Positions 1 to 34,410 of a stretch of DNA of 64,000 nucleotides are shown here, piece by piece. Both the position numbers and the translations under genes were made by a program. Positions within the stretch are counted from its first letter, which is position 1; every line of letters starts with the position of its first letter. Origin of the DNA: an uncultured delta proteobacterium (GTDB taxonomy: Bacteria; Desulfobacterota; Syntrophia; Syntrophales; UBA2185). The stretch lies in assembly GCA_963695875.1 (NCBI GenBank), contig CAVOID010000007.1, positions 1 through 64,000 of the forward strand, read 5' to 3'. The notes beneath the pieces were generated by a model that saw only the letters and a list, made by a program, of their open reading frames with translations, searched no databases and had not been told where the DNA came from.

Positions 1-119
1 GTCACCTATTAAAAGGCACCTTGTCAAGTAACAAAATTACACGTCTCGAAAATAATAATTTTCGTAAAAATAAAAGATACAGTATCGTTGTCATCAGCAT
101 CTTTTCTGGTGCCGTAGTT

Positions 120-400
120 TCTTTGCTTTGTGGTGTCAGTCTTCACTGCACCAGTCACCCATCAGGATTAAGGTCTTGCTGAAATAGAACATATCAGGAC
201 CCATTCCGCCATAGCGGACCAGAAAATCTTCGGTTCCAGGCCATGTCCAATTGTGGCTTCTAAGCTCAATTCTCATGGTTTTTAACCATCCTTCGTATGG
301 CTCACGGCATGGTCAGTAAAGATGTGAGAGCATCTGTCGGACGAAACGCTCTACCAATCAATAATATGGTTCTGCCAACGAAATCTCTGGATGAGCGTTC
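120..400 (-). ncRNA. putative bridge/seek RNA of IS110 #1
   Basis: CAATAAT at 359-365 equals the target flank at 1529-1535; CACCCAT at 156-162 approximates the donor end CACCTAT at 3-9; each sits beside a hairpin; ends approximate. Confidence 0.6.
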
Positions 401-409
401 CGTCCTTTT

Positions 410-1432
410 TCATGTGGCAAACAGTTTCTCCGGTATGAACGGTACCTGATCCTTCATGACATGATATGCTGCTCGGGCCAATTTATGGGCCAGTGCATTA
501 TGTGCAATCATAAAATTTGTCTTCTGCATTTTACGGTTGTAATAAGCTCTTGACAGGGGATCATACCGCCTGGCAAGTTCCGCTGCTTCGGAAAATGCCC
601 ATGCCAGATACTTGTTACCATTTTTCTTATTTCCGCTGCCCTTTGCTTTTTCGTTGCTGGTCCAGCGGGACGAAACCTTGCGACAATAGGAACAGTAATT
701 GCCTACTTTCTGAAACCGGTCAATGGATCCTGTTTCCAGCATGATAGTTAGACCAAGAACCTTTCCAATGCCGGGTAGCGTTAACAATTTTTGATAGGGA
801 TCCTTTAATCGAACCTTACACTCAACGGTGTATTCAATGGCCCGAATCTTCGATGTTAAAAAGTCGATGCTCTCTTTGGTGACCTTGCCGGACAGGGCTA
901 ACTCCTCATTTTCCTTTAGAAGAGGGGTCACACGGTCTTCCTTTAATCTTTTGATGTCATTACTGTCAATCTTGACGCCGCAGTTCCTCACGATAATGTT
1001 CTGCAGACTCAAGATCAGGGATGTCCTCAACTTGACCAGATGTCCCCTTTTGCGAAGCAGATCCCGAATAGCCCGCTCTTCCTTCGGATATATATGGCCT
1101 TCCGGTAAAATATCGAGTCTCAACATCTCCGCAAGCCAGAAAGCATCTTCTTTGTCATCCGAATGTTTCAGGCCCTTATACTTCTTAATGGCTGCCGTAT
1201 TCGCCAGATGAACCTTATAACCCGCATCCACCAAGGTGTCCACGATCCAATACCAGTTATAGGTGGATTCCACGACAATGCCGATTATGTGTTTCCGATG
1301 GGGACTGAGAAAATCGAGAATAATCCCAGAATCATTTGGTAATTTCTTCTTGGCAACCCTGTTCCCTTCGTGATCAATGATGGCCACATAAGTGTTGTTT
1401 GCATGTAAATCAAAAGCCGTGTACAATTCCAT
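410..1432 (-). CDS. IS110 family transposase/recombinase
   Basis: N-terminal DEDD RuvC-like motifs (AFDLH, VVEST, HSDDKEDA); C-terminal LPGIG...SN...GNKYLAWAFSEAA; GGAGG RBS before ATG at 1432. Confidence 0.95.
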   Translation of the reverse strand: MELYTAFDLHANNTYVAIIDHEGNRVAKKKLPNDSGIILDFLSPHRKHIIGIVVESTYNWYWIVDTLVDAGYKVHLANTAAIKKYKGLKHSDDKEDAFWLAEMLRLDILPEGHIYPKEERAIRDLLRKRGHLVKLRTSLILSLQNIIVRNCGVKIDSNDIKRLKEDRVTPLLKENEELALSGKVTKESIDFLTSKIRAIEYTVECKVRLKDPYQKLLTLPGIGKVLGLTIMLETGSIDRFQKVGNYCSYCRKVSSRWTSNEKAKGSGNKKNGNKYLAWAFSEAAELARRYDPLSRAYYNRKMQKTNFMIAHNALAHKLARAAYHVMKDQVPFIPEKLFAT

Positions 1433-1531
1433 ATAGCACCTCCTCAAGGTAAGATTGATCTCTTTCCCGGAGCATAACAGAATGTAACCATATCTGCTAT
1501 GCCCAGGAGGTGCCTTTTAGATGATTATCAA

Positions 1532-1542
1532 TAATCTTAAAA
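1532..1542. repeat. half of a dif-like X palindrome, abutting IS110 #1
   Basis: TAATCTTAAAA is the reverse complement of the arm TTTTAAGATTA seen at 8923 and 23385. Confidence 0.65.
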
Positions 1543-1582
1543 ATAACTGTACTTGCGAAAGAACTCTCGACACTTACTTTCA

Positions 1583-1679
1583 CTTACAAAGTGTGGGCGC
1601 GGCCCAGATATCGAAATGCTTCATTTCCATTTGTAATCTGGAATAAAACCTGCTTATACTTCAAGCGCAAATCAGAAAG
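1583..1679 (+). repeat. complete C-N36-A-N35-B site (degenerate)
   Basis: CTTAC 1583-87, 36 bp, TTTCCATTTGTA 1624-35, 35 bp, ATCAGAAAG 1671-79. Confidence 0.55.
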
Positions 1680-1748
1680 ACATAACGGATCAGATTGTTT
1701 TTAGTCTTTGTTCTTTAATTTTTCTTAGAATGAAAGGAGTGTATAATT

Positions 1749-2540
1749 ATGGAAGGTCAGAATTTCATAGAAGCAGTTGATTTTATAAGAAACAACCTGA
1801 GGCTCAAGACTTTCCCGGTGGCAGTTAAGTTCTTGAAGGATAAAAAGGAATTCCCTGAAAAAACCCGCCAACCGTCTGTAGCCCTCGGGAAAAGGATAAC
1901 CATTTGCCAGGCCGTTACTATGGCCCGTGTTTATGGATGGACTATGGGCTTGACAAAGGACGATATTATCTGCGTTCCCGCGGCCATTGCCTTCGGCTTC
2001 AGTACGTCAATCAATTCAGCTGATTCTCTGGGGAAGCTCTTCTGTGAGGGAAGCTACTCGAAAAGTGAGGATGTCGGGCGTAAGGAGGCTGCCTCGATCA
2101 AACTATTGGAGAAGGATGAGTATGAAGCCATTTTGCTTTCACCTTTACAAAGGGCGACCTTTGAACCGGATACGGTTGCCTTTTATGGAAATCCGGCTCA
2201 GCTCATGCGACTGGTACATGCTTGGACTTATCGAGAAGGCCAACGCGTTAAGGGTAACTTTGGAGGTAAAGTTGAATGCACCGAATATCTCCTTGCGCCA
2301 TTTAAGGATCAGGTGCCGCATATTGCCATCCCCGGGACAGGGGACCGTGTCTTCTCCATGACTCAGGATGACGAAATTGTTTTTTCAGCTCCAGGTAAAT
2401 ACCTTATGGAAATAGTTCAGGCTTTCAAGGAGGCAGGGAAAAAAGTTGGTGCACAGTATCCTGTGCCTGTTTATCTTAACTTTCAGCCGGAATTTCCAAA
2501 GCAGTTCAAAGAACTCGGAAAAGAGTTGGGTATTCTATAA
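1749..2540 (+). CDS. DUF169 domain protein
   Basis: PVAVKF..CQA...AR..G...C.A..FG and NPAQLMRL...EC...PG.GDR motifs. Confidence 0.85.
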   Translation: MEGQNFIEAVDFIRNNLRLKTFPVAVKFLKDKKEFPEKTRQPSVALGKRITICQAVTMARVYGWTMGLTKDDIICVPAAIAFGFSTSINSADSLGKLFCEGSYSKSEDVGRKEAASIKLLEKDEYEAILLSPLQRATFEPDTVAFYGNPAQLMRLVHAWTYREGQRVKGNFGGKVECTEYLLAPFKDQVPHIAIPGTGDRVFSMTQDDEIVFSAPGKYLMEIVQAFKEAGKKVGAQYPVPVYLNFQPEFPKQFKELGKELGIL

Positions 2541-2645
2541 GTATATAAAGCAAGAATTATTTGCGGAGGGTGATGCCTTTAAAGCATTGCCCTTTGCTTT
2601 TTAAGAAGAATGCCCCCATTCTTATCATTTACTTGATGCCGTTGT

Positions 2646-2996
2646 TCAGGCGAGCGCAGGATACCAGGTGTCGTGGGCTACGAAGTCTTCTTCGATGTCG
2701 TGTGGTTGGTGCAGTGTTCCTTTCGGAATTCTCAGAAAACTTCCCGCGACCAGCGGCACGTCTCCGATGCCTTCGACCCACATCTTGGCCTTGCCCTTCA
2801 GCACATAGATGATGTCGTCCGAGTTCTCGTGTAAGTGCTTCTCTACTTGCGACCCGACCGGCAGGTGAACGAGAGCGCATGTAATGTCAACCTTGTCCGC
2901 TCGTTTGGACACGAGATATGCGACTTCAACGCCAGGCAGTTGCGGATGAGGGTCCCACTTCCGTTCTTCGGGTTGAATAAGCTTATAGTTCTCCAT
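2646..2996 (-). CDS. cupin domain protein
   Basis: H.H..SDDIIYVLKG and IPKGTLHQP cupin motifs; start set at MENYK. Confidence 0.85.
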   Translation of the reverse strand: MENYKLIQPEERKWDPHPQLPGVEVAYLVSKRADKVDITCALVHLPVGSQVEKHLHENSDDIIYVLKGKAKMWVEGIGDVPLVAGSFLRIPKGTLHQPHDIEEDFVAHDTWYPALA

Positions 2997-3038
2997 GTTT
3001 TTCTCCCATTGCCTCACTGTTCCGATAAGGATGATAAG

Positions 3039-3096
3039 TATTTCCAGTTGAAATATTGTAACAGGAAACAATATCAAAAAGCAACACTTCAAGAAG
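3039..3096 (+). repeat. A-N35-B site
   Basis: TTTCCAGTTGAA, 35 bp, TTCAAGAAG. Confidence 0.65.
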
Positions 3097-3131
3097 AAGT
3101 GCTCGCTACCCTCTGTTGGGTCATGTCCCAT

Positions 3132-3410
3132 TTAGGACACATTAACTCTCTTCTTCAAGTCCTTCCCCACCTTGAAGAACGCCATCCTTTTGGGCTTCAC
3201 ATCAATTTTTCCTCCCGTCTTCGGGTTCCTTCCCGCATAAGATTTGTATTTCCTCACAGAAAATCTCCCAAATCCCCTGATCTCAATCTTACTACTATTT
3301 TTTAGTGTTTTGGTAAAACCGCCAAATATCAGGTTAATGATAGTCTTAGCGTCCTTCTCTGTGAGATCTTCTTTCTCTACTAATGCCATAATTAAATCGA
3401 ATTTGTTCAT
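3132..3410 (-). CDS. ihfB: integration host factor beta / HU family protein
   Basis: IEIRGFG.F...GRNPKTG...F..GK.LK motif. Confidence 0.85.
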   Translation of the reverse strand: MNKFDLIMALVEKEDLTEKDAKTIINLIFGGFTKTLKNSSKIEIRGFGRFSVRKYKSYAGRNPKTGGKIDVKPKRMAFFKVGKDLKKRVNVS

Positions 3411-3541
3411 ATTATGTTACCCCTAAAATATTATTCCTTTATTATTTTCAGTTCTACTGTAGTGTTGGCAATAAAGTGAAGTGACTGTTTCTAAGGTAAC
3501 ATATAAAATTTATCAGAATATGTCGAAGAACTACAGAATAT

Positions 3542-3569
3542 TTTTAAGATAATTACCATTTTCTTAAAA
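3542..3569. repeat. dif-like 11-6-11 palindrome X
   Basis: TTTTAAGATAA-TTACCA-TTTTCTTAAAA. Confidence 0.7.
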
Positions 3570-3781
3570 AAATCGACTTTTTTTGTATATGGTTGAACTT
3601 TATACCTGCCTATTCATATCTTTTTGTGAAGACGTAATTGGTTTTTATTGGAAGGCAACCTGCTTGTCCGCCCTAGGAATTACCTCAAAAACAAAAAATG
3701 CAGTTGAAGAAAAATCTCCAACCGCTGCGAAGCCAGTAATGAAGGGTAATCACTTATTTAACCATCAAAACCACTCCGTCC

Positions 3782-5755
3782 TTATCGCAACCCCTCTGCC
3801 ACGACCTCGGCGATGTCCTTGACCGCAACTCTATCGGCATTCTTGTCTTTCAGGCCGTCTTCAAACATGGTCATGCAGTATGGGCATGTCACGCAGACTG
3901 TGTCAGGATTCTTTTTGAGGGCTTCGGATACTCGCTCCAGATTGATGCGGGTGCCGAGGTGCTCTTCCATCCACATCCTGCCGCCGCCTGCGCCGCAGCA
4001 GAAAGAATTGTTCCTGTTCCTTTCCATCTCTTCCGGAGGCTTGCCGGTAGCCTGGTTGATTATATTTCTGGGCGAATCATAGATATCGTTATGCCGTGCC
4101 GAGGTAGCAGGAATCATGGAACACGATCTTGCCAAGATTGACGCTTGTTCTTGAGCTTCAGCTTGCCCGTTGGGAGAAGATCATTGATGAGGTCGGCGTG
4201 ATGGATGACCTCTCCGTCGAAGCCATACTGCTTGTAGTCGTTCTTCAGGGTTGAAAAGCAGTGCGGGCACATGGTGATGATCTTCTTCACACCCTTGTCC
4301 TTGAACATCTTGACATTGTCCCTGGCCATCTTGTCGAAAACAAACTCGTTGCCGAGCCTGCGCAGGCTGTCACCGCAGCACATCTCGTCCTTGCCCAGGA
4401 TGCCCCAGGATATCTCCGGCTGCATCGAGGACCGCTGCCAAGTGCCACGGTGACCAGCTTGTTCCTGGAGTCGAAAGCGCCGGCGCACCCTACGAAGAGG
4501 AGGTACTCGGTGGATACCGTCGAACGGCTTCACCTGCATCTGGGAGCACCACTTGGTCCTCTCGGCGGTGCGATGCCCCACGGGTTGCTGCGCTGCTCCA
4601 TATTCTCGAAGAGGTTCAGCAGCTCTTCCGGAAAATGGGCCTTCATCTCCACCAGGTAGCGCCTGAGCTGGAGGATCTTGGGCATCTGCTCGATGAATAC
4701 CGGGCAGACTTCCATGCATGCACCGCAGGTAGTGCAGGACCAGATCTGCATCTTCGGTGATGCTGCCTTCGCCGTTATTGCCGATGAGCGGCAGCGTCGG
4801 CTTCTGGCTCTTCTTTCACGGCCGGGCCGTTGTCCAGCAGGTTGATCTTGAGATCATGGATGACCTGCCTCGGGTTCAACGGCTTGCCGGTATTTGCCGC
4901 AGGACATGCAATCTGGCACCTGCCGCACTCGGTACAGGCATAGGAATCGAAGAGGTCTTTCCAGGTAAACTGGTCGACGGTTTCCACACCGAATTTGTTG
5001 CCCTTTACAAACGTCTCCATAGGCAGCGTGTTGGCCTTCCCGAAACGCCTGAAGTAGCAGCTCGGGATGGAGGACAGTATGTGCATGTGCTTGCTGTACG
5101 GCAGATAGTTCAGGAAGGAGAGCAGCACGACGGCATGAACCCACCACCAGAAAGCGATAAGCGATTTCGCGCTCTCGGCTGTATGGCCGGCATATAATGA
5201 AGCACCTACGCATCGATGAGACGGGCATAAAGGCTGAAGCTGCTTCCTGGCCGACGGCTATCTCGATGCCGTGCAGGTTGAAGAAGGCGATCATCAGCAA
5301 GGCGATCAGGGAAAGGATGACATAGGCATCCAGTGTAATTGCCTCAGGATATGGAGGCCACAGCAGCCGCCTTATACCGGCGATAATTACGCAGACAAGG
5401 GCAATGAGCGATACGAGATCAAACAGGAATACGAGCGGGTGATAGATCGCGTTCGGCGAGCATCGAGAAGCTTATGGCCGGGAATATACCGTGTATGCAG
5501 AATTCGGCATTGGCAATCATCAGGATCATGAACGACCAGAAAAGGATGAAATGGTTGATACCGAAGGGCTTCTGCAAGACCCGCTTCTGGGCAAACGCAT
5601 AAATAAAGGTATCTCGAATCCTGGCAGCGACGTCCTTGAAACGGTCTTCCGGTTTGCCGATGGTCACCAGGCCGAAGCGTTGAAAGCAGCTCCACGCAAA
5701 CAGAAGAACAGCGGCAATAAAAACAACGGCAAAAATCAGTCGGATTGGGTATCAT
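3782..5755 (-). pseudogene. membrane Fe-S oxidoreductase (FadF/DUF224, HdrD-like CCG domains), multiply frameshifted
   Basis: Fragments carry CTECGRCQIACP, CTTCGACMEVCP, CCGD..RRLGNE, CPHC, CCGAGGGRMW and CPYC in different frames; the breaks may be read errors. Confidence 0.85.
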
Positions 5756-5784
5756 GAAAATATTCCTTCTCTCATACTTTCAGT

Positions 5785-7131
5785 CTAACAGACCTTCGGT
5801 GTCCCTCTCCGGGCCTTAACCTGCCGGACATGCTCCGTGATCGCCGGAACGATCTTGAAAAGATCGCCGACGATGCCGAATGTCGCCACCTCGAAGATCG
5901 GGGCCTCGCGATCGCGGTTGATGGCGATGATCATATCCGAGTCCTGCATGCCGACCAGGTGCTGAATGGCGCCGCTGATGCCGCAGGCGATGTAGATCTT
6001 CGGCCGCACGGTCTTGCCTGTCTGCCCGACCTGGCGTTCCACCGGCATCCACCCAGCGTCAACAGCGCTCCTGGATGAGGCTACCACGCCGCCCAGTTCG
6101 TCCGCAAGCTCCTGCAGGATTTTGAAGTTTTCTTTCGCCATCATGCCCCTGCCGCCGGAAACAATGTACTCCGCGCACCGACGATATCAACGCTGTCCTT
6201 TTGATCGGCATCACTGATGACATCCAGCACCTTGGTGAGGACGTCCTCTTCCTTCATGGTCATTTGTTCCCGGATGATTTCTCCAGTCGCATTCTCGATC
6301 CGGATAGGCATCGGCATGACGTGAGGACGGACCGAGGCCATCTGGGGCCGCCTTTGCTCGCAGACTATCGTTGCCATGATGTTCCCGCCGAAGGCCGGAC
6401 GCGTCTGCAGCAACAGTCCTTTCTCATCGATATCAAGGCCCGTACAGTCGGCTGTCAGACCGGTCCTCAGCTTTGTCGCAACAGCTCCGGCGAGATCCCT
6501 TCCCAGTCCGGTGGCTCCCATAAGGACGATCTCAGGTTTGTACTTTTCCACCAGGTAGCAGATGCTCTCGAGATAAGGGCCTGTCCGATAGTAATGACAG
6601 TACGGGATCATCGATGAGATATGCCTTGGTTGCCCCATAGGCGAATGCTTCCTGACAGAGCCTCTCCACATTGTGCCCGAGAACCACGGCGCACGATTCG
6701 ACCTGAAGCTGCGAAGCCAGTTGGCGCCGACTCCCAGGAGCTCCCAGGAGACCCTGGCAGGGATACAATCGGTCTGCTCGACAAAGACCCATACCCCCCG
6801 GTACTGGGCCAGATAATTCTTCAGCTTTGCCTCTTCGTAGTCTTCTTCCTCAACCGGTGCGCCCCCAATGCCCTTTTCCGCCGCAAGCTGCTTGAGGATT
6901 TCCATCTCCTCCGGGGTAAAGAACATCTCAAGGGCTTCAGCCGGGCAAATCTCAACGCATTTCTGGCAACCGATACATTTATCCGCAAGGATGATGGGCT
7001 CACCCTTTTCATTCATCTCAATCGCTTCCGCCAGGGCAGGCGCTCTGACAGCGCGCTCCGCAGGCAATACACTTGTTGGGGATGAGAGATGCTTTACCTC
7101 GCGGCTTCTTAACTTTTTTCGGTTTGTCCAT
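5785..7131 (-). pseudogene. etfA: electron transfer flavoprotein alpha with N-terminal 4Fe-4S domain, frameshifted
   Basis: [45 protein letters not shown]; several indels. Confidence 0.9.
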
Positions 7132-7167
7132 CTGTCTTGTTTCTATCGATATTCAGTTATTTCTTAA

Positions 7168-7983: not shown

Positions 7984-8025
7984 TACTTATCCTTCTAAAA
8001 TTTTCCCATTCCCCTGCCTTCTTAC

Positions 8026-8511
8026 TCAATATTCGTCCAAAACAGAGAGCCCTCGCTCACCAATCAGAATAATCTCGGTATGGTTCAGACGGGTGGCTAT
8101 TACTTTTGCCGTGGCCTGCATGAAATTATATCCTAATGTAATGTCTTTATTCAGCAGCTCCCTGAGTTTAGCTCCATCGAAGGCAATGGCTTTCGAGTCA
8201 TCAATACATCGAGCTCCTAAGGTGTACACATAAGGCTCAATAACTGCTGACCATCCCATAGCATCTCCCTTTGTGATGAGATCCACAGTGACCTGCATTG
8301 GTGGTTTAGCAGTACCCATGTAGGTATCCATGACCAGAACAACCTTTCCCCCTGCCAACATGTAGAGGTTCTTCGCTGAATCTCCCTTTTTCCACAACTG
8401 GAAACCGGCCTTATAAGATTCTTCGGTAGCGATATCCGCCAGTTTTTTGATCTGTTCCTCACTGAACCCTTTGAAAAAATTGTATTGCTTTAAGAGATCT
8501 ACCGAAACCAT
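8026..8511 (-). CDS. stand-alone cyclic nucleotide-binding domain protein
   Basis: cNMP-fold pattern with GDAMGWSAV; no C-terminal HTH. Confidence 0.85.
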   Translation of the reverse strand: MVSVDLLKQYNFFKGFSEEQIKKLADIATEESYKAGFQLWKKGDSAKNLYMLAGGKVVLVMDTYMGTAKPPMQVTVDLITKGDAMGWSAVIEPYVYTLGARCIDDSKAIAFDGAKLRELLNKDITLGYNFMQATAKVIATRLNHTEIILIGERGLSVLDEY

Positions 8512-8922: not shown

Positions 8923-8950
8923 TTTTAAGATTATCAGTATTCTCTTAAAA
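8923..8950. repeat. dif-like palindrome X
   Basis: TTTTAAGATTA-TCAGTA-TTCTCTTAAAA. Confidence 0.7.
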
Positions 8951-9145: not shown

Positions 9146-9153
9146 CACTTCCC

Positions 9154-13323: not shown

Positions 13324-13453
13324 GATTACCGTTTGAAGGGTTGTATGATTGAGAAATCCATCGGGTCATTGACAACAGGAAGGAGTGCTTGATGAAAACA
13401 CCTACAAAGCGAGAGTTTCCGATTTTCAATTGACTTGATGAATACCACTTGTA
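13324..13453 (+). repeat. A-N36-B followed by C-N36-A (130 bp)
   Basis: GATTACCGTTTGAA, N36, AACAGGAAG (13374-82); CCTAC 13401-05, N36, ATACCACTTGTA. Confidence 0.8.
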
Positions 13454-13762
13454 ACGGGCATTTATTAAAGCAGGCATAGCTATCGCGAAGATTGCAAAAA
13501 TAAATATGCCGGCTAATCAGTTGTTGGGTTTAAGGTCGCCACCTAAAAGGCAGGAAAAGGTTATATAGGTACTGAAAGCCTCTCTTAGTTTCAAACCTGA
13601 TTTGTCCAAAACTATATGAAAACTTCAAGAATCCTGCCTACCGAAGACGGTGCTATGAGTTTTAAATCCCTGACAACATGATTATTTGTTTCCATAACTA
13701 TCTCTCTGTATTTTTTATATTAATGACCGAAAAAACATTCAAAGAGAAATATCCGCTCCAGT

Positions 13763-14533: not shown

Positions 14534-14767
14534 GATTACAAGTTGAAATATTGGATAAATAGATGCAAATGGAAAACCAACATAACAGGAAGCTATACTC
14601 AGAAAGAACTTCAGCAAAAATACATAGTATGAAATCATCATATTTTTAAGAATAATTACCATTATCTTAAAGATAATCGGTAGTCGTGAAAGAATTCTTG
14701 CAACACTTGTTAACACCTACAAACAAACGGACTCAAGTCGGTTAAAGTTCATCGACTACCGATGAAA
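14534..14767 (+). repeat. A-N36-B, X palindrome, C-N35-A
   Basis: GATTACAAGTTGAA, N36, AACAGGAAG; X at 14645-72 (TTTAAGAATAA-TTACCA-TTATCTTAAAG); CCTAC 14716-20; GACTACCGATGAAA. Confidence 0.8.
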
Positions 14768-20840: not shown

Positions 20841-21446
20841 GTCGGCCTAAGGGTCTTAGGAAGCCAACCGAAAATGGCACTTTAAAAAAGTTGTTTTCAG
20901 CTACTAAAGGTGAAACCGAGATTGTCAAGCTTTCCAATCTTTAAATTTATTTTTAACTCTTTATTAATTCTTCTAATTTTTCAACTTTTTCGTTTAGAGT
21001 AAAAACTAATTTTTCCAAAAGGTCTATTCTATTATAAAGTTTCCTTGCGATTTGTTTCTCGCAAAAAACGATAATCTCTTTCTCTTTTGTGCCAGTCACG
21101 TTTCCGTCCATAGATTGCCTCCATGTCCAGTCTAAAAATTAATATATGAATCAACTTTTCCTGCTGGTCTTGGTCGTAAACAGGGATATCTGCTGTTTCA
21201 CCTTCTTGCTTTTGCATTTCGGACATGTGGCTTTGCCCTTATCATGTTCGCTGAAACTCTGTATCAATGAAAACTCTTTTTTGCAGGCTTCGCAAAGATA
21301 CTCATACGTTGGCATGCTTTCACCTCCACATTAGGATTATTTATATTGCTATTTTTGATTTATATTTTAATTAAATGAGATATATTGTCAACTTCAGTAT
21401 TTCCAAGTTTTGATCTTAATATACCACACCTAAGTCATTTATTAAA
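20841..21446. repeat. ~600-bp direct repeat, copy 1 (copy 2 at 34328-34931)
   Basis: Near-identical sequence by direct reading. Confidence 0.95.
21151..21315 (-). CDS. FmdB-family zinc ribbon protein
   Basis: MPTYEYLCEACKKEF...CPKC; GGAGG RBS. Confidence 0.85.
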   Translation of the reverse strand: MPTYEYLCEACKKEFSLIQSFSEHDKGKATCPKCKSKKVKQQISLFTTKTSRKS

Positions 21447-23294: not shown

Positions 23295-23548
23295 GATAAT
23301 CATTTGAAAGGATGGATCAATGTTAAAAATGCCGGCCGCTTTGTTTCAGGAAGAACGGATTACACTTAGTTGACTGACGAATATTTTTAAGATTATCAGT
23401 ATTATCTTAAAAATGATCGGCACAGTGCAGATTGCCGCATGAAGAACATACAACGAGAGGAATCAGCGGATAAGCCCTTGCAACACTTGTTAACGCCTAC
23501 GAGTCAATATATTCATGAAGCCGGGAAAACTGAAGATTACCAATTGAA
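23295..23548 (+). repeat. A-N36-B, X palindrome, C-N36-A
   Basis: GATAATCATTTGAA, N36, TTCAGGAAG; X at 23385-412 (TTTTAAGATTA-TCAGTA-TTATCTTAAAA); CCTAC 23496-500, N36, TTACCAATTGAA. Confidence 0.85.
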
Positions 23549-23591
23549 AGAGAGTAGGACTCTGCGTCACCAAAAATTGAATGATGGAATT

Positions 23592-26345: not shown

Positions 26346-26642
26346 TCACTTGGTCAGGGCTTTTATCATTTCCTCTGCCTGACTTACTGAACCAATGGGA
26401 TGTACCTTGAAACGGACAAATGGGGTGTAGCGTTGTACGGCATTCATAACTTCTAACTCAGATCCTTCATTAACCGCATATCCGCCAAGTTCGCCAATAA
26501 ACGTTCCCCAATCCTTGGTTAAACCTTTTTTCATATCTTCCTTGACCATCTCCAATAAGAGACTCCATCCAGCCCCTCGCTCTTTTGGATTCAAAGGTAC
26601 CTTCGTCCAATCAATCTCCCAAAGCATAAGATACTTTCCCAT
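26346..26642 (-). CDS. DUF3303-like small protein
   Basis: RBS and intact ORF; family call tentative. Confidence 0.6.
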   Translation of the reverse strand: MGKYLMLWEIDWTKVPLNPKERGAGWSLLLEMVKEDMKKGLTKDWGTFIGELGGYAVNEGSELEVMNAVQRYTPFVRFKVHPIGSVSQAEEMIKALTK

Positions 26643-26968
26643 AACTTATCCCTCCTTATTAAAAGAATGTTCTTGAATCGGTTCTTGACAAATTAGTGAA
26701 GGAGGCTCCGCAGGAATGCAATCATCCCTGGAAGCCCACAGTATCGGCACCTTCCGGAAACTCCCTCTCATGAACTTCCTCAAGAAGGTTAGGGGTTAGG
26801 TTATTGGTTTACTGAGCTAAGGTTAGTTACTGAGCTACGGGAGGAATATGAATTACTAATGAGCTACAGAAGGAGTGACAATTTATAAAAAGATACTCCT
26901 AACATCAGTGGTAGTCAAGGGGAAATTTTCTCCTGGAAATAGCCTCGATTTTTCAATTCTAAACTGAG

Positions 26969-27027
26969 GATCAGCGATTGAAATCTTGCATTCTGAAGGA
27001 AATTGCAAAAAACAAGACTACAGAAAG
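26969..27027 (+). repeat. A-N36-B site
   Basis: GATCAGCGATTGAA, N36, TACAGAAAG. Confidence 0.7.
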
Positions 27028-27047
27028 TTAGCTTCCTTTCAAGCGCA

Positions 27048-27626
27048 TCAATGTTTGCCGTGACCTGGATACGGGAAGAACATAGGGACTTTTTTCCTGT
27101 ATTCCACATAGGATGCGCCAATACGTTTTTCCAGTTCCGGTTCTTCGATCATCTTGAATTCAAGAAAGGAAATTACCATAAACATCGGCGTGTATATGAT
27201 GACCAGTGAGAGCGACTGAAACAGAAAGCCGATGCCGAAAAGCATAAGAAAGACACCGGAGAGCATGGGGTTTCGCGAATAACTATAAGGTCCGGTGTCA
27301 ACAAGCTTCGGGGGCGGGCTGAGAGGCACTGGTGTGCCTCTGGATTTGAAAAATGTCAACACAGACCATAGCCAAAGCCAGATTCCGGCTGCAAGCAGGG
27401 GAGTGGACAGGACAAGGTTTGCAGGCGAGGGCGGCCATGCGTGCAAGCCCAGCAGTTTGTCGGATACAAATGCCAGAAAGATGACGAAAAGGACAACGCC
27501 GAAAAAAAACAGGCCCCCCAGAAAAGTCAGAAGGCCGTGATGTCTTTCCCGCATGGTTGCTTTCCGGTAGATATAGTCGATTATCCTGTCACGCAAGCGC
27601 GCCATTAATCTACTTTCTTCCCCCAT
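27048..27626 (-). CDS. isoprenylcysteine carboxyl methyltransferase family protein
   Basis: GTP.P..PP..LV..GPY..SRNPM, EEPEL, Y.EYRKKVP. Confidence 0.9.
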   Translation of the reverse strand: MGEESRLMARLRDRIIDYIYRKATMRERHHGLLTFLGGLFFFGVVLFVIFLAFVSDKLLGLHAWPPSPANLVLSTPLLAAGIWLWLWSVLTFFKSRGTPVPLSPPPKLVDTGPYSYSRNPMLSGVFLMLFGIGFLFQSLSLVIIYTPMFMVISFLEFKMIEEPELEKRIGASYVEYRKKVPMFFPYPGHGKH

Positions 27627-28012
27627 ACAGGGACACTTTCATTTGATAAGAAATCGCTTCTGCGGAGAAAAAATTACTATGGGCGGCCATGTGTGTCAAA
27701 GAAATAATGACCGCAAGATATTGTTTGGGAAAATATATGGTTGAACCTCACACCTGTTTAACCTGAGGGCATCAGATCTTAGGCGTAGGAATAATCATTC
27801 ATGTAACTATAGCAAGAATTTCAATACATTCCGTGATTTTAATTTTTTTGATTGAAGCAGAATCCATACAATTTTCTGACCCCTGCCGGCTACTTTTAAG
27901 TGCGAAAAATAATGATAATCTTTATATATCAACAGCTTACGTATTAAGACCATTTCTGGGTACATCTCTTGCTTTATCTAAATATTCGTATTAATAATCG
28001 AGTAGACCAAAA

Positions 28013-28375
28013 ATGAGACTGCTGGTAGTGGATGACGCGTCGGGTGTTGTGAGTATCTTGTCTTTATGGCTGAAAGAATCCGGCTATGAAGTAGATGGGG
28101 CGCATGACGGGATCGAGGCTGTTGAGCGTCTTCGGAACAATTCATACGACGTTGCTATCGTAGATGCTATTATGCCTAATATGAACGGCTCAGAAGTCTG
28201 CAAATTCATAAAGTCTCATAATCCCGGTACGTATATCATCGGTATAAGCGGCTATCCTGACTCTCTGAAAAAGCTAAAGAATGAAGGCGCCGATATCTGC
28301 TTCACCAAGCCTTTCAGCATTGACCAAATCAAAAGGGCCATAGAAAATCAATTTCATTTAGTGCCCATTTCTTGA
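28013..28375 (+). CDS. single-domain response regulator
   Basis: LVVDD, IVD..MP, ISG, KPF. Confidence 0.9.
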   Translation: MRLLVVDDASGVVSILSLWLKESGYEVDGAHDGIEAVERLRNNSYDVAIVDAIMPNMNGSEVCKFIKSHNPGTYIIGISGYPDSLKKLKNEGADICFTKPFSIDQIKRAIENQFHLVPIS

Positions 28376-28925
28376 CGCCAGCGAGAGAAGTTATGAAGGC
28401 CCTGGGCAGCAATGTAACAAAATGAAGAGGTTTGCAAAATGAAAGAGATAAATAGCATGTATACATCTGATAATAGGCAGTTGTTCCCAGCTTTCAAAGC
28501 TGATCTATTCGTGAATCCCCTGAGGCCGTTAAACAGTGATTATCAGAAAAAGGAAAAAGATGCGGCGATAATAAGGAAAGAGCTCCCCGCCGAGCACTTG
28601 ACCGCGACCTACTGGGGATGATGGGCTGTCTTTCATAGCAGGAAGAGATAAAAGCCGGATCGCATGATCTATGCTTACTTTTTTTCCAAATGTCTCAGGA
28701 TCTCCCAGCTCTTGAGAAGTTCTATTGCACTCTTTAATTGATTATCTTTCATAGTATCTAAATCTCCTTTTGCCTGAATCGCTCCCTGCGCGGCATCTTT
28801 CAGCTCATTCAATTGGGATTTCATAAAATTAATGTATTTTGAAGCTCAAAATAAGGGAAAGCCTTATATTCATCCGCCGCGTCTGTGATAAAATAATCAA
28901 AAATGGTTTAAAGGAGGTGACACCG

Positions 28926-29099
28926 ATGCCACGATATTGTGTTGACCCTGTCTGTAAGTGCAAATTGGAGGAAGAAAAAGCGGCGCAAAGCAGTGAACAC
29001 GACGGGAAGAAAGTTTATTTCTGCTCCGTGGAATGTAAAGAGGAGTTCGAAAAAAACCCTCAGGAGTATATGGCTGAATATCTGAGGACCGGTGCTTAA
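28926..29099 (+). CDS. YHS domain protein
   Basis: DPVC...YFCS..C...F..NP..Y. Confidence 0.85.
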   Translation: MPRYCVDPVCKCKLEEEKAAQSSEHDGKKVYFCSVECKEEFEKNPQEYMAEYLRTGA

Positions 29100-29526
29100 T
29101 CGACATTTCACTTTTCTAATTTATTATCTCTCTTCTTGAGAGGCATACCATACCCATTGGAGTGACGTTTGCAGGCCTGTCATCCGGTTTCGTTTTCCTG
29201 CGTGGCGCCAACTGGAAATCAGATTTGCCGATATCCTGACAACCCGCAAGTACATGGTGAAGCTATGCCCCACTAAACAGTCACGATGGTCTGCACTTTC
29301 GTCCTTGTTTCTTTGTTGAGTAGCTCACAGGCAATTGGCGATTGTGCCTGGGTGATGTGGATCAAGCATCACGAGGTTCAACTTAATGATGGCAGGGAAA
29401 AAGTGTGGTGGGAGATTGAGACAGCGATTCCCAGGTATGATCAATGTGTGCAGGTCAAGCAGGACATCTGGAATAAACAAGGAAGAAGGGGAAAATGAAT
29501 TTTTACAATGAAAACAGGAGGGTAAC

Positions 29527-29967
29527 ATGGATATTGATCTTAAGAATCGCATAACCGAATACATAGAGAAGTGCCGTTTCTGTACTATAGCAACCGTCAG
29601 TGCAGATGGACAACCAAATGCATCAACAGTCGCTTTTAATAATGTAGGAATGGATATTTATTTCAATACAGCTAGAGATAGTAAGAAAATACAGAATATT
29701 TTATCTAATCCCCGGGTGGCTATAGCTATGCGAAAGCCTCGCCTTCCTAAAACTGACCAGGAAATAACGGGAATCCAATATAGCGGCACTGCAAAAATTC
29801 TGTCTGACGATGAAATTGCTAAAGCACCCAAAAGAGTCGTGGCCAGAAATAGGCTTTTCAACAGTTTAAAACCTGGATCATCAGTGATCGTTAAAGTGAC
29901 ACCTTTGGAGATTTACCTAATCGACTATTCCCGAGGGCTTCGACATCGAGAGCTTCTTCAATTATAG
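29527..29967 (+). CDS. pyridoxamine 5'-phosphate oxidase-like FMN-binding protein
   Basis: IATV..DGQP, SKK.QNI..NPRVA. Confidence 0.85.
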   Translation: MDIDLKNRITEYIEKCRFCTIATVSADGQPNASTVAFNNVGMDIYFNTARDSKKIQNILSNPRVAIAMRKPRLPKTDQEITGIQYSGTAKILSDDEIAKAPKRVVARNRLFNSLKPGSSVIVKVTPLEIYLIDYSRGLRHRELLQL

Positions 29968-30109
29968 CCAAAATCATTGAAGAAGGTATTATTTGTTACA
30001 CCTACACTTATAAGGCCTCCAGATGTCAATAGATAAATTTATCCATCAACGAAATTTTTTTCTTCCGCTCTTTCAAATAACGAACCATCTGGCTATTGGC
30101 AGCAATTCT

Positions 30110-30450
30110 GACTTTGTTTCAACATAGGCGTCGGGAGAATGATCCCGCACCATACACTTATAGAGGTTCAACTACCTATTCAATCTGCCCAGGGGAAAAG
30201 AGAGAGTCCGCCGGGCATCAGGCAGCTGCAAGGCGAAATCATCACCTTGCGACCTGGAAAATATACCGTACCCTCATGCCGTCCTAATCAAATAACGGGG
30301 TATGGGAATCATCCCCAGTAAGTAGCAGGTTCGGTTGAGGAGCAGAACCTTTCCAACGAGCCAAAGAGCACGTTATGGAAAATTGTAGGAGCGGAACGGA
30401 CCTCCAATCAAGTCAAGGGAATATCGGGTTTATTCGTCATATCATCGAAT
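30110..30450 (-). ncRNA. putative bridge/seek RNA of IS110 #2
   Basis: Target guides at 30409-14 and 30383-89; donor guide at 30155-62; ends approximate. Confidence 0.75.
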
Positions 30451-30553
30451 ATGCGTTCATGGACGCAAGGGTTTTCTTCTCCCTCGATGCGGACACATGC
30501 TCGTACCCATAGTTGTTCCATTAGGTGCCCGGGCTGATCCGTTCCCTCCATAT

Positions 30554-31598
30554 TCATAGGCTCAGCAGTTTGTTTTGATCGAAAGCCTCCTTGTTCTTGA
30601 GCATGAAATATACGGCCCGTCCCAATTTATGGGCAAGGATAGACAGGGCTTTTGCTTTGCCGTGTTTCCTGGTAAGCCTGTCTACATATTTCTTTGCCAG
30701 ATCATTGCTTTTGAGAAAGAAGACGGCGGCCTCGGAAAAGGCCCACTTGAGGTGAACGTTTCCTATTTTACTGCCGCCGGAGCCGCATTTTTTCCCATTG
30801 GATTCTTTGGCGCATTTTACGAGGCGGCTGTATGAGGCAAAGTCCTGCACACTGGCAAAGCGGCGGATATTTTCTATTTCGTACAGCATGATCAGGGCGA
30901 TGATTTTTCCAACTCCCGGGATGGTCTGGAGTAAGGCATAGGAAACCGGGTCGTGGTTATTGGCCAGTTTAATTATGGATTTTTCGAGTTGCAATAAGAT
31001 GCCGTCATAGGTCCTGATCATTTCAATATCTACGGCAATGCTTTTCTGCACGGAAGGCTGTTCAAATTGCCCGGCAATGCCGTTCCTGTTCTGATGTCTT
31101 GAAATGGGGCCAAAGGAATCAGGCAGGTTGTACTGGCTGTTGGTGTTCTGGATGTGAGCGTAGAGTTCGGAGCGTTTTCTCATAAGGTGATTCCGGCGTC
31201 TCATGAGGTCACGCGTGGATCTCATCTTTGCTGGATATACATAGGCCATGGGGATCATGCCTCCTCTGAGGAGTGCGGCGATCTTTTGGGAGTCGATCTT
31301 GTCGGTTTTTTGCTTTCCCGCCATGGATTGCCTTCATGTAGAGGGCATGTCCGAGGACGAAGGGAATGCCTTCGTTGTGGCAAAGATCGGCTACCCAGTA
31401 CCAGGTGAAGATGCATTCTACGGCAACGACGATATCCTCACGAAAGGGAGCGATGGCTTTGAGAAAGGCATCACGGTCGGTTTTCAGGTTGCGATGTTCC
31501 CTGATTTCTCCTTTTTCATCGAGGATGCAGATATACATTTTTCTTGTGTGTAGATCGATTCCGCAGTGATACTTGTGCTGATTAGTGTAAAATCTCAT
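30554..31598 (-). pseudogene. IS110 transposase with a single frameshift near 31305
   Basis: GIDLH, AVEC, HGGKAK / DKIDS, IPGVG, GNVHLKWAFSEAA. Confidence 0.9.
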
Positions 31599-31783
31599 GG
31601 GGCTTCCTCCTTCTTCTGGTATTATTTGGCCCTACTCAATTCCAAATATACCATGCTTTGGGGGAGGCCTTAAATAGTATCAAGTCCTCAATCCAAGATA
31701 ATTCCGAAAGTCAACGATTATGGTTAGAAATGTGCATAAAAAAACAGGGACATAGCGACCCCGCCTTTGTGGAGTGTAGTGAA

Positions 31784-32470
31784 TCAGGTTTTTTGTTTTG
31801 TTAAATGAAGCACTCTTGTGGCGGCAGACCCAATTGCGGAAGGTATAAAATTAATAAATGTATATTTCGTGATGAGGTCAAAAATCTTAATTAGAAAGTC
31901 GAAGCAGGCACCATAGTATTCAGGTTCTTTGTTTGTATCATGTTTAACCGTAAATCTTTTGTCTGGGAACTCACCTTCGTAGATGTCTGCTATGTGTTTT
32001 ATCAGAATATTTATAGCAATATTAGTTGTTGGCCCACCTTTATCAGGGCGAATATTTTTACTCTCTTCCTCAAACTTGTCCTTCATTATTCGTGTTAATT
32101 CTTTTACTCTATCCAAAGCCAATATAATATAAGATTCGTCAAGGTCATATAAGTCATCCTTCCTTATTACAAGCTCTCCTGTTCTTGCAACTGCAAGCTT
32201 CAAATATTCGTCCAACTCTTCTGCGTGCTTTAAGAGGACATCTGCGTGCTGCTCTAATATTTTTAAATCAGCCTTGATTTGGGAGTCACGTCTCGAAACA
32301 TCCAAGCCAAATGCGCATATTACAATAGAATGATATATTTCTTTTATAGCGTTGTCACTAAACGGGAATCCCATTTCCTCTATTAACTTGCGGATGTCGG
32401 CTTCTTTTAGCATCTCGCTTTTTAGTTTTCCAGAGAGTATGCCTCGGATTGTGGCTTCGTCTGCTACCAT
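31784..32470 (-). CDS. hypothetical protein
   Basis: Intact low-GC ORF with RBS and upstream promoter P. Confidence 0.7.
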   Translation of the reverse strand: MVADEATIRGILSGKLKSEMLKEADIRKLIEEMGFPFSDNAIKEIYHSIVICAFGLDVSRRDSQIKADLKILEQHADVLLKHAEELDEYLKLAVARTGELVIRKDDLYDLDESYIILALDRVKELTRIMKDKFEEESKNIRPDKGGPTTNIAINILIKHIADIYEGEFPDKRFTVKHDTNKEPEYYGACFDFLIKIFDLITKYTFINFIPSAIGSAATRVLHLTKQKT

Positions 32471-32597
32471 CTGCAACCTCCTGTTGTTTTGCTCCTGTGT
32501 TAATAGGGAAAGGCGGCTCAGGATTGCCGCTTTTCGGGAGCGACCCTATCTTTGATTTTTTGATAGGTTTGATAGGAACTTCATTTTTCGTGAGGGA

Positions 32598-32626
32598 AGT
32601 ATAAGACAAGCGGCCTTGTGTGTCAA
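32598..32626 (-). promoter_or_regulatory. repeated sigma70 promoter P
   Basis: TTGACA-N17-TATACT. Confidence 0.8.
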
Positions 32627-32642
32627 TGCAATGCTGACCATT

Positions 32643-32697
32643 GATTACCACTTGAAAGGATGCATATCTGTCAAAATCATCGGATGCTTGACTTCAG
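32643..32697 (+). repeat. A-N36-B site with B split by IS110 #3
   Basis: GATTACCACTTGAA, N36, TTCAG | GAAG (34315-18). Confidence 0.85.
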
Positions 32698-32795
32698 CTT
32701 GCTATATTGTAGTTCGGGATTGAATCGACTTCGAGAATGTCATATATCCTTCCGATGCAAGATTGGTTATTCCAGGAAAATGGCAAGGGAGGGAT

Positions 32796-34067
32796 ATGGT
32801 TATGAAGAAAGCAGATACCGGGAAAGTGAGAGGTGTAAGGGACGACGCGTTGATCGTAGCGGTAGATATAGGAATGGAGATGAATCGGGGATATTGTACC
32901 ACCCCAGACGGGAGGAGCACGAAGACTTTCAAGTTTGAAAATACCAGGGAGGGAATGGATACGCTCTGGGGCATGATTATGGCGAGCAAGAACAGATTTA
33001 AATGTAACGAGGTGATTGTCGGATATGAATCAACCGGTCCCTATGGGGAGCCTATGCTTCATTACCTGATGAAAAAGCCGGTTAGGATTGTGCAGGTCAA
33101 TCCCATGCACACAAAGAGGGTAAAGGAGATAAACGACAATTCTCCGTTAAAGACCGATGAGAAGGATCCGCGGGTCATTGCGGATATCATACGGTGGGGC
33201 CATGCATTGAGCATTGTCATCCCGGAAGGTGATGCGGCGTATTTACGGAGGTTGAACAACTCGCGGGAGAGGCATGTAAGGGAACGGACTGCCCTTGTGA
33301 ACCAGTTACAGCAATTGGTCTTTCTGTTGTTTCCCGAGTTCATGACAGTGATAAAAGATATAAAATGCAAGACACCTCTCTACCTTCTCAAGAGATATCC
33401 GACGCCGGAGGCCATAAGTGTTTTGGACAAGCAGCTCCTTGGCGAAGAAATGAGGAAGCGGAGCAGGGGCAAGTTTAGAGAGCACCATGCGGACATGCTG
33501 ATCAATCTTGCCAAGAATACCGTCGGTATCAGAGAAGGCGTTTCTGGTCTCTCCATGGACATAAGACATATCCTCGTTCAATTGGAGATGCTAAAAAACC
33601 TTATTGCCGAGATAGAGAGCGAGATGGAGATAGCCCTTGGGAGGATACCTTATAGCTCAAAGTTGCTTTCCATAAAAGGGCTTGGCGTAGTATCCGTGGC
33701 AGGCATCATCGGAGAGATAGGAGATTTTAAGAAATTCAAGACACGGTCAGAGATCATGAAACTGGCCGGTCTTGACCTCTACGAGATAAGCTCCGGCAAA
33801 ATGAAAGGACAGCGGAGGATCTCAAAAAGAGGAAGGAGTCTGCTCCGGAAGATACTCTATTATGCGGCGATCCAGACCATAAGAAAGAATGGCATCCTGC
33901 ATGATTACTACACAAGACTGACCGACAGGGGCATGAAAAGGATGATGGCCCTCGTTGCGGTTTCCAGGAAGCTTTTGGGAATCATCTATGCGATTGTAAG
34001 GGATGACAGCGAATATTCAGTCAACTTTGAATCCATGAAAAGGCAGGTGATAAAAAAGGCTGCATAA
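32796..34067 (+). CDS. IS110 family transposase/recombinase
   Basis: AVDIG, YESTG, KTDEKD, IKGLG, AGL....SSG, ISKRG...LR. Confidence 0.95.
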   Translation: MVMKKADTGKVRGVRDDALIVAVDIGMEMNRGYCTTPDGRSTKTFKFENTREGMDTLWGMIMASKNRFKCNEVIVGYESTGPYGEPMLHYLMKKPVRIVQVNPMHTKRVKEINDNSPLKTDEKDPRVIADIIRWGHALSIVIPEGDAAYLRRLNNSRERHVRERTALVNQLQQLVFLLFPEFMTVIKDIKCKTPLYLLKRYPTPEAISVLDKQLLGEEMRKRSRGKFREHHADMLINLAKNTVGIREGVSGLSMDIRHILVQLEMLKNLIAEIESEMEIALGRIPYSSKLLSIKGLGVVSVAGIIGEIGDFKKFKTRSEIMKLAGLDLYEISSGKMKGQRRISKRGRSLLRKILYYAAIQTIRKNGILHDYYTRLTDRGMKRMMALVAVSRKLLGIIYAIVRDDSEYSVNFESMKRQVIKKAA

Positions 34068-34079
34068 GGTATTATTACA

Positions 34080-34230
34080 TAGGCGGGGAGATTATCGTTT
34101 TCTTCCATTGAGGCGCATAGCGACCTCCTACTTCAGAATACATAACTCCCCGTCAACATCCTAACCTCAATTGAGCAAGGTAAAAGCGTTTCATACGACT
34201 TTCAAATTACAAGGGTTGGGTAGGATGTCA
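34080..34230 (+). ncRNA. putative bridge RNA of IS110 #3
   Basis: Two stem-bounded loops containing all four guide segments. Confidence 0.85.
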
Positions 34231-34410
34231 TACAACAAGATGGGGATAACCGCCTATGAAAATACCTTCAAACATAAAATACATATGAAAAATATCTTGA
34301 CTGGAATAAACAAGGAAGAAGCAGAGTGTCGGCACAAGGGCCGTGGGAAGCCAACCGAAAATGGCACTTTAAAAAGTTGCTTTCGGCTACTAAAGGTGAA
34401 ACCGAGATTG

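Follow-up and report, generated by a model that had tools for sequence, protein, structure and literature searches.

Why do three different insertion sequences (IS) sit in what look like pieces of one and the same intergenic repeat, all within a short stretch of a single bacterial genome? This question is raised by the first 64 kb of contig C7 (CAVOID010000007.1, positions 1 to 64,000; hereafter the window, meaning the whole stretch of DNA that was analysed) of an uncultured member of the order Syntrophales, whose assembly comprises 2.86 Mb in 16 contigs and is 83% complete. Contigs of this genome (G000) are designated by C-numbers, genomes by G-numbers, and X1, X3 and X4 are metagenome runs. 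The answer is probably that we are dealing with three separate elements of the IS110 superfamily, referred to as IS1, IS2 and IS3, which share the IS1111 layout and whose guides are tuned to three motifs (X, C and B, respectively) of one repeat family.

The Pfam scan, which covered 51 open reading frames (ORFs) of the window, found the domains PF01548 and PF02371 in three ORF sets, at 410-1447 and, frameshifted, at 30554-31598 on the minus strand and at 32763-34067 on the plus strand. The transposases are only 32% (IS1 versus IS2), 26% (IS1 versus IS3) and 25% (IS2 versus IS3) identical, and the three elements therefore represent different lineages. Close relatives of one of these transposases were found in records named Syntrophaceae, Smithellaceae and other Desulfobacterota. 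The elements and their genes are delimited as follows:

3 to 1530, minus strand: IS1; element proper at 5-1528, core CA at 3-4 and again at 1529-1530; second copy at C8:1-1535.
410 to 1447, minus strand: IS1 transposase, 345 aa (PF01548, E 2.5e-16; PF02371, E 1.3e-12).
30005 to 31680, minus strand: IS2, 1676 bp including one copy of the core, from the joint 30004 to 31681; second copy, 98.5% identical, at C11:223994-225671.
30554 to 31598, minus strand: IS2 transposase, split by a frameshift in the window (ORFs 30554-31324 and 31209-31598); an intact 347-aa ORF in the C11 copy.
32698 to 34312, plus strand: IS3, 1615 bp; core AG at 32696-32697 and again at 34313-34314, from homologue junctions and an empty-site contig.
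32763 to 34067, plus strand: IS3 transposase, 434 aa (PF01548, E 1.5e-25; PF02371, E 1.5e-21).

Within the genome, IS1 is present in two copies, each at the start of a contig, IS2 in two full copies plus fragments, and IS3 in one full copy plus a 334-bp right-end fragment. All three elements display the long non-coding region downstream of the transposase gene that is a trait of the IS1111 subgroup (3' versus 5' non-coding length: ~405 versus 81 bp in IS1, ~549 versus 82 bp in IS2 and 245 versus 65 bp in IS3), and all three are inserted without a long target duplication, the same dinucleotide recurring as a short core at both junctions. The subterminal inverted repeats of IS1 (TAAAAGGCACC/GGTGCCTTTTA) fit the IS1111 rule of 11-13-bp repeats with a 7-bp left and a 3-bp right extension, and those of IS2 (GGAGGCCTTA/TAAGGCCTCC, also given as TTAAGGCCTCC/GGAGGCCTTAT) fit the same 7-bp/3-bp rule (PMC11187229). 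In IS3, the sole 13-nt inverted pair has its left arm 66 bp within the element. As to the frameshift in IS2, contigs of runs X1 and X3 are without one base at 31304; the window copy carries either a real inactivating mutation or an assembly error.

What each element interrupts can be read from its junctions, from homologous copies in other genomes and from contigs in which the insertion is absent. The informative junctions collected within the family number 10 for IS3, 13-17 for IS2 and 3 for IS1. The pieces of the interrupted sites lie at:

1531 to 1637, plus strand: X right arm (1531-1543), X-C linker, C-like motif (~1581) and A-like motif (1622-1637); 14646 and C11:223921 carry X-C linkers homologous to this one.
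29994 to 30006, plus strand: left half of motif C (TGTTACACCTA plus core CA).
31681 to 31731, plus strand: right half of motif C (CAAGTCC) and the A motif of the same C-A unit (31716-31731).
32643 to 32697, plus strand: A motif (32643-32658) and left half of motif B (ACTTCAG, 32691-32697).
34313 to 34320, plus strand: right half of motif B (AGGAAGAA).

For IS2, an X1 contig joins position 30004 to 31681, skipping 1676 bases with two shared letters ('between' being flagged as not known), and the excised site reads ...ACACCTA-CA-AGTCC..., which is motif C, TGTTACACCTACAAGTC. The C11 copy has junctions identical to those of the window copy, and the DNA beyond them is unrelated. Among homologues of IS2, an A motif lies ~31 nt off the right junction, clearly in 9 of 13 cases, weakly in 3 and not at all in 1, and the 17 left junctions include CACCT in 6 and AAAT in 4. 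IS3, whose junctions read ...GACTTCAG / CTTGC on the left and ...AAACA / AGGAAGAAG on the right, is missing from an X4 contig which reads ...CTGACTTC and then continues directly with position 34313 onward. Its removal gives ACTTCAGGAAGAA, i.e. motif B, with the A motif at 32643-32658 located at the standard distance of the family. All ten left junctions from eight genomes end in (A/T)CAG (ACTTCAG and ACTACAG three times each, ATTACAG twice, GTACAG and ATAACAG once each), all ten right junctions from these genomes start with (A)GGAAG, and an A-like motif at the standard distance is visible in nearly all of the homologues. Based on these junctions and on the X4 contig, IS3 spans 32698-34312 with AG at each junction. 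In the case of IS1, the window starts with GT-CA-CCTATT... and the right junction reads ...GATTAT-CA-ATAATCTTAAAAA (1529-1543). The ends were set from 28 homologous loci in other genomes (ATAATCA...AATGGG on the transposase strand, with TG on both sides), in agreement with the 7-bp/3-bp extension rule (PMC11187229), and removal of the element leaves GTCAATAATCTTAAAA. The relative G016 carries a 92%-identical copy with the left flank ...TTTTTAAGAGATCGT, and an intact target, TTTAAGAAATCGTCAATTATCTTAAA, is present in the window's own genome at C11:218013; together with the right flank CA-ATAATCTTAAAAA of the window, these sequences place IS1 at the centre of palindrome X.

The initial annotation, made from the window sequence alone, had claimed that three different IS110 elements each sit in a different motif, that removal of IS2 and IS3 restores motifs C and B, and, from two visible bases of left flank, that IS1 lies within an X palindrome. 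The first claim is confirmed by Pfam, transposase identities, junctions and empty sites, the second by the X1 joint for IS2 and by the X4 contig and the ten junctions on each side for IS3, and the third by the G016 flank and the intact site at C11:218013.

Candidate guide segments matching the flanks were located in the non-coding regions of the elements:

354 to 365, minus strand: IS1, ATTATTG followed by ATTGG on the transposase strand, equal to the upstream flank GATTAT plus core TG.
30522 to 30527, minus strand: IS2 guide 1, CACCTA on the transposase strand, ~26 nt past the stop codon, the reverse complement of the flank TAGGTG.
30404 to 30414, minus strand: IS2 guide 2, GACTTG followed by ATTGG, equal to the upstream flank plus core TG.
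34100 to 34136, plus strand: IS3 guides, TTCTTCC (34100-34106, the reverse complement of GGAAGAA) and ACTTCAG (34130-34136), jointly equal to motif B.

These segments vary together with the sites. Across the 28 IS1-type loci, where at least eight different guide sequences are represented, the seven letters preceding ATTGG agree with the upstream flank plus TG at 7/7 positions in 16 loci and at 6/7 in 7, with a lower fit in 5 that is partly due to slipped automatic anchoring; loci of one and the same genome do not count as independent. Guide 1 of IS2 covaries with its flank at 6 of 7 loci (CACCTA with TAGGTG at 4, CAAATA with TATTTG at 2). The first guide segment of IS3 is invariant in 8 of 9 alignable homologues, and the second (ACTTCAG in five homologues, otherwise ACTACAG, AGTACAG, ACCTCAG or ATTACAG) parallels the B variants found as IS3 flanks; compared with the four known left flanks, it matches at 7/7 positions twice and at 6/7 twice. 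Putative seekRNA-type segments matching both target strands, a trait of IS1111 elements, can thus be recognized with covariation, in the arrangement reported for seekRNAs (PMC11187229). Empty sites, homologue junctions and guide segments equal to the motif flanks all support an independent, sequence-specific targeting by the three elements. The guide region of IS3 (33980-34253) also stands out in four peat metagenome runs by a depth ~100-fold over its flanks (140-860 versus 2-30), and is therefore presumably shared by many related IS copies in those communities.

From these sequences we infer that the guides are expressed and direct insertion, as follows. Each element would produce a guide RNA (seekRNA or bridge RNA) from the non-coding region downstream of its transposase gene, and two short segments of this RNA would base-pair with both strands of the target, which measures 12-14 bp and encloses a shared core dinucleotide (TG/CA in IS1 and IS2, AG in IS3). 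The guides would be tuned to one mosaic intergenic repeat family, with IS1 directed to the centre of X, IS2 to C (ACACCTA-CA-AGTC) and IS3 to B (ACTTC-AG-GAAGAA).

What, then, is this repeat family? Two types of unit are built around motif A (GATTACCnTTTGAAAG): A-B units, whose B core ([A/T]CAGGAAG) begins 51 nt past the first base of A, and C-A units, whose C core (CACCTAC[A/T]A) begins 40-41 nt ahead of A. Since nhmmer iteration on a 59-nt unit saturated at 17 and then 58 matches and missed diverged copies, fixed-spacing patterns were used for counting. In the window's own genome, TTGAAA-N37-CAGGAAG occurs 16 times versus 0-3 at other gaps, ACCTAC-N33/34-GATTA 5 + 9 times versus 0-2, and CAGGAAG-N29-ACCTAC 4 times versus 0-1. 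All 16 A-B units and 13 of the 14 C-A units are located outside ORFs, in a genome of which 83% lies under filtered ORFs. Of 16 genes upstream of an A-B unit, 13 are encoded on the other strand (35 of 41 under relaxed matching), and so are 12 of the 13 genes downstream of a C-A unit (16 of 19 relaxed). Because the units mostly oppose the strand of the neighbouring genes, an intergenic gap read in gene orientation has the order stop, terminator, A', C', (X), B', A', promoter, start. Units are also chained between genes into A-B-C-A or A-B-X-C-A arrays, and the loci used for comparison with the interrupted ones are:

13324 to 13455, plus strand: intact A-B-C-A array.
23295 to 23550, plus strand: intact A-B-X-C-A array; another begins at 14534.
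36479 to 36538, plus strand: intact A-B unit, the closest paralogue of the unit that holds IS3.
31747 to 31762, minus strand: hairpin resembling a terminator, belonging to gene 31784-32476 and immediately preceding the reverse complement of A (31716-31731).
32598 to 32626, minus strand: P module, promoter-like (TTGACA-17-TATACT), facing gene 31784-32476 and adjoining the A motif at 32643; itself a repeated brick.

Motif X (TTTAAGAT-N10-ATCTTAAA) is a 26-30-bp palindrome. With at most one mismatch, it occurs 7 times at spacer 10 and twice at spacer 11, and at none of the spacers 6-9 or 12-14; with at most two mismatches, all 12 copies are outside ORFs. X is flanked by B and C at 23386 and, in a copy with three mismatches, at 14646, and lies just ahead of C at C11:223921, which is the locus of the second IS2 copy, as well as at the IS1 site, where a linker and C-/A-like motifs follow (1544-1637). 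As a control for chance, the window contains 7 matches to A and 3 matches to X with at most two mismatches, versus 0.23 and 0.05 expected. Being multicopy, conserved and outside genes, the motifs therefore offer many harmless landing sites for the IS. Three small proteins with a cyclic nucleotide monophosphate (cNMP)-binding domain are encoded in the window (8026-8511, 40200-41136), and X sites are found at 8924 and 39114. X or X-like palindromes are located upstream of one cNMP-binding-domain gene and just upstream of the start of rubrerythrin, and X may be an operator.

The repeats extend beyond this genome, to all searched genomes of the window's taxonomic family and to several further families within the order. 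In a survey of 91 genomes of the order with the strict A-B pattern and a reversed-pattern control, 4-21 matches per genome were found in all 6 genomes of the window's family, and 60 and 81 in two genomes of other families, against 0-2 for the control; many other genomes of the order have 0-3 matches, near the control level. In G054, a genome of another family in the order of which 386 kb were analysed, the A-B gap is 37 nt 37 times versus 0 at other gaps, a count biased by the choice of stretches, which were taken for holding A-B matches and are not a random sample. The C-A gap in this genome is 34 nt in 19 cases and 33 nt in 1, and neighbouring genes are on the opposite strand upstream of 27 of 32 A-B units and downstream of 15 of 18 C-A units. 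Spacing exact to the base, diverged interiors, strand bias and a location just behind terminators and ahead of promoters are indicative of a constraint on DNA or transcript rather than of the decay of mobile elements. Our working reading is that of an extragenic mosaic repeat family, similar to bacterial interspersed mosaic elements (BIMEs), which marks the borders of transcription units. Our best guess for its function, and a tentative one, is a protein-bound punctuation of these boundaries acting on DNA.

Several observations weigh against these interpretations. The left flank of IS1 is unseen in its own genome, where both copies start contigs; the right flank of the C8 copy matches X over ATAAT only (~5 nt), with no clear X arm; and the first guide of IS1 shows no clean match to the X arm. 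One full copy of IS2 with the guide CACCTA (locus L024) sits at a site that does not match this guide. The collection of flanks from IS homologues, a check proposed in the initial annotation, yielded junctions within motif B on each side of IS3 in all ten cases; for IS2, the expectation of C-type flanks held in part, 10 of the 17 left junctions reading CACCT or AAAT, whereas 7 fall outside both target classes, several of these being truncated fragments. Only 3 of the 12 X sites have A, B or C within 200 nt. Thus the motifs do form one site family at the three loci of the window, but X in general is tied to it loosely, and the earlier claim of a real, abundant and conserved family stands for its spacing peaks, intergenic position and spread, less so for the inclusion of X. 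With respect to function, nothing above noise was found in Rfam, either in a gathering-threshold scan of the whole window or in scans at E <= 1 of 13-36.7 kb and six further loci. Pairing in a putative A/B hairpin is about as expected across 61 units, one pair excepted, and no conserved start codon or frame follows B, so that a small-ORF or ribosome-binding reading of this motif was rejected.

Could the motifs be an artefact of misplaced ends, the shared junction letters belonging to the IS, with no host motif interrupted? It is true that the two IS2 copies agree beyond the drawn ends for 13 nt on the left and 4-6 nt on the right, as do the two IS1 copies for 7 nt past 1528. However, the contig free of IS2 carries the joined motif, IS-free copies are abundant (16-47 A-B units, 14-22 C-A units, 7-12 X sites) and the flanks diverge directly outside the motif in every genome, which makes this explanation highly improbable. 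The repeats might also be non-autonomous mobile elements resembling miniature inverted-repeat transposable elements, or decayed copies of a recent burst, their conservation reflecting common descent and not function. The occurrence of the bricks in many combinations, with some copies 85-90% identical over 60-220 bp, would suit such an origin, but the units are bordered by neither terminal inverted repeats nor target duplications, their interiors are diverged whereas the motif positions are fixed to within 1 nt across families, and two genomes show the strand bias relative to genes; we regard this origin as improbable. A similarly low probability is assigned to units acting as small structured or cis-regulatory RNAs transcribed from the repeat strand, with hairpins between TTGAAA (A) and TT(T/A)CA (B) and in the B-C linker. 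The strict spacing would be compatible with such RNAs, one subclass can pair over 8-11 bp (TGAAATGTTGT with ACAACATTACA), and some B-C linkers of G054 pair over 9-10 bp with one compensatory change. Yet the inner stem pairs across the 61 units no better than column composition predicts and without covariation, single-sequence folds of 16 units are mutually inconsistent, and neither an Rfam match nor a consistent promoter ahead of A was found. We have accordingly dropped the A-B RNA hairpin.

The arrays could alternatively be the boundaries of gene cassettes, with C, B or X as crossover points of a site-specific recombination that shifts individual genes or small blocks of genes, and with the IS directed to these sites much as IS1111 elements are to attC; more broadly, they would be junctions of an integrase-independent cassette system widespread in Syntrophales, in which genes travel with a C-A element at their 3' end and an A-B element at their 5' end. 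Gene blocks are indeed bracketed by C-A at the 3' and A-B at the 5' side, with A in direct orientation. For instance, gene 31784-32476, which has no DNA homologue in 21 other genomes of the family, lies between C-A and A-B, whereas the flanking P and A-B bricks have copies in all 22 family genomes. The only block 95% identical to the same-genus genome G002 within 21.9-27.7 kb starts exactly at C, but its right end is away from any motif, and other shared blocks terminate at the borders of genes instead. An X1 contig joins 32692 to 36529, fusing the A-B units at 32643 and 36479 with the loss of 3.8 kb, namely IS3 and 2.2 kb of genes; this deletion or variant between direct repeats is explained equally well by homologous recombination. 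Neighbouring genes of 35.5-53.6 kb are found on different contigs of G002, but this synteny with G001 and G002 was not used as evidence, because the matches scatter over many contigs and, at an identity to the window of only 75-91%, many of them may be paralogues. Moreover, no integron integrase reaches the cut-off, no recombinase is linked to the sites, and the motifs are not attC-like inverted pairs. Crossover at these motifs therefore seems unlikely to us, and a cassette system spread across the order is equally doubtful.

Other identities were considered for the A-B units. A as a remnant of a CRISPR (clustered regularly interspaced short palindromic repeats) repeat was dropped, a whole-genome k-mer scan having given only two repeats, protein-coding or otherwise tandem. 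A promoter reading on either strand was also discarded: by eye, no pair of hexamers with a 16-18-nt spacer is common to the three subclasses, and the sole entry of a promoter scanner at A-B is a weak TTGAAA-17-AATCAT at 32652. A comparison with the consensus sites of sigma-54, sigma-32, extracytoplasmic function sigma factors and integration host factor gave no fit, and no tRNA or tmRNA was found in the scan.

How does this compare with known systems? The presence of IS1111-type elements in attC sites, in repetitive extragenic palindromic (REP) sequences and in the ends of Tn21 is established (PMC11187229, PMC12288879), in agreement with the background given in the initial annotation, according to which IS110/IS1111 elements are often found in multicopy sites such as attC, REP or transposon ends. 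ISKpn4 and ISPst6, for instance, are IS1111-family elements whose targets are integron-cassette attC sites (Post & Hall 2009, cited in PMC11187229). The elements described here resemble them in the DEDD transposase, the long downstream non-coding region, the multicopy target at gene boundaries, putative guide segments matching both target strands and, for IS1 and IS2, the 7/3-bp extensions. In contrast, the present targets are without R/L inverted cores, and three lineages use three motifs of one composite site. The core sites of attC, R''/L'' and L'/R' (RYYYAAC ... GTTRRRY), fold as a hairpin. By reading, A, B and C show no complementarity to one another and do not follow the attC consensus, and the best match to the integron integrase model TIGR02249 in the genome, 83% complete, scores 82 bits versus a cut-off of 265. 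The proposed analogy with the IS1111-attC relationship thus holds insofar as several IS lineages use a multicopy extragenic site, but does not amount to membership, since no integrase reaches the cut-off and the inverted cores are lacking.

Extragenic palindromes offer a further comparison. ISPa11 and ISPpu9 are IS110/IS1111 elements located in Pseudomonas REP sequences (PMC11187229, PMC12288879), where, as here, the insertion occupies a constant position within an abundant extragenic repeat. Each REP sequence is a single imperfect palindrome, whereas here only X is palindromic, and B and C are asymmetric and at fixed distances from A. Extragenic, multicopy and mosaic short units are found in both; the palindromic unit typical of REP and BIME sequences, which are associated with a RAYT (REP-associated tyrosine transposase), is represented here only by X, with no A-B stem supported. 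The BIMEs of E. coli are extragenic and high-copy, and consist of a few short bricks in set orders between genes. Their brick sequences are unrelated to those of the present arrays, in which the bricks are direct, unlike the alternating inverted REPs of BIMEs. IS1111 elements in transposon ends likewise use the conserved end of another repeated element, but we have no evidence that the arrays are transposon ends. The IS110-group element IS621 with its bridge RNA shares RNA-guided recombination and a core dinucleotide common to donor and target, but the IS110 group encodes its guide RNA upstream of the transposase gene and not downstream as here. The mode of action would be the same as in known IS1111 targeting; what is new is that three lineages split one composite site which is neither attC nor REP. 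The repeat family itself appears to be undescribed: no description of the A/B/C/X repeats was found in a full-text literature search or, supplementary files excluded, in a comparative-genomics study of Smithellaceae from 2026, which in the parts consulted mentions only that insertion sequences often end contigs.

Guide-flank matches that can be read from sequence and that covary across genomes would provide natural examples of guide reprogramming. Conserved non-coding elements can in practice be traced through the IS residing in a genome, whose guides point at them, and the family detected by this route brackets genes at spacings exact to the base in syntrophic bacteria of one order. If the cassette reading were true, the arrays would be a second, non-integron instance of the attC/IS1111 relationship, with three lineages whose guides address different parts of a junction.

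Other repeated modules accompany the arrays. A P-type brick of ~70 nt (TTGACA-17-TATACT and a conserved spacer) is found at 32568-32640 on the minus strand, 39373-39431, 48727-48798 and C7:69413-69546, upstream of unrelated genes (a 230-aa ORF, rubrerythrin, TerC/DUF475). The regions 20841-21400 and 34328-34900, both 3' of B motifs, are ~89% identical where BLAST aligned them (34328-34400 with 20841-20914) and have in common, further along, a terminator-like hairpin and a TTGACA-16-TAAAAT site; the DNA to the right of IS3 thus also belongs to a repeat. A 3' module (AGAGTAAACTAATTTTTTAACTTTCA..., GGCAGGG...CCCTGCC hairpin, T run) is shared before A-B units at 45660-45800 and 43010-43075, both on the minus strand, and at 45720-45800 it follows a 27-codon ORF consisting only of a PEP-CTERM-like tail, apparently a gene remnant. 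A GC-rich repeat of ~110 nt (GTGAAGCTCCCCGCCCACAGG...GGCGGGGCTTGCGGGATGTGCTCCCGGTCA), distinct from A/B/C/X, has at least eight copies in the genome:

C3:284685 and C3:436095; C4:45909; C5:36984 and C5:87362; C11:47651; C13:72826; C14:126179.

Toward the right end of the window, an aldehyde:ferredoxin oxidoreductase gene (51762-53529, minus strand) consists of two overlapping ORFs (393 aa and 197 aa) split at 52348-52355, which could reflect a frameshift, a recoding site or a mistake in the assembly. Between 54000 and 63300, the GC content climbs from ~0.44 to 0.53-0.63, and GH94 or glucan-phosphorylase-like ORFs overlap as if one very large gene were in pieces.

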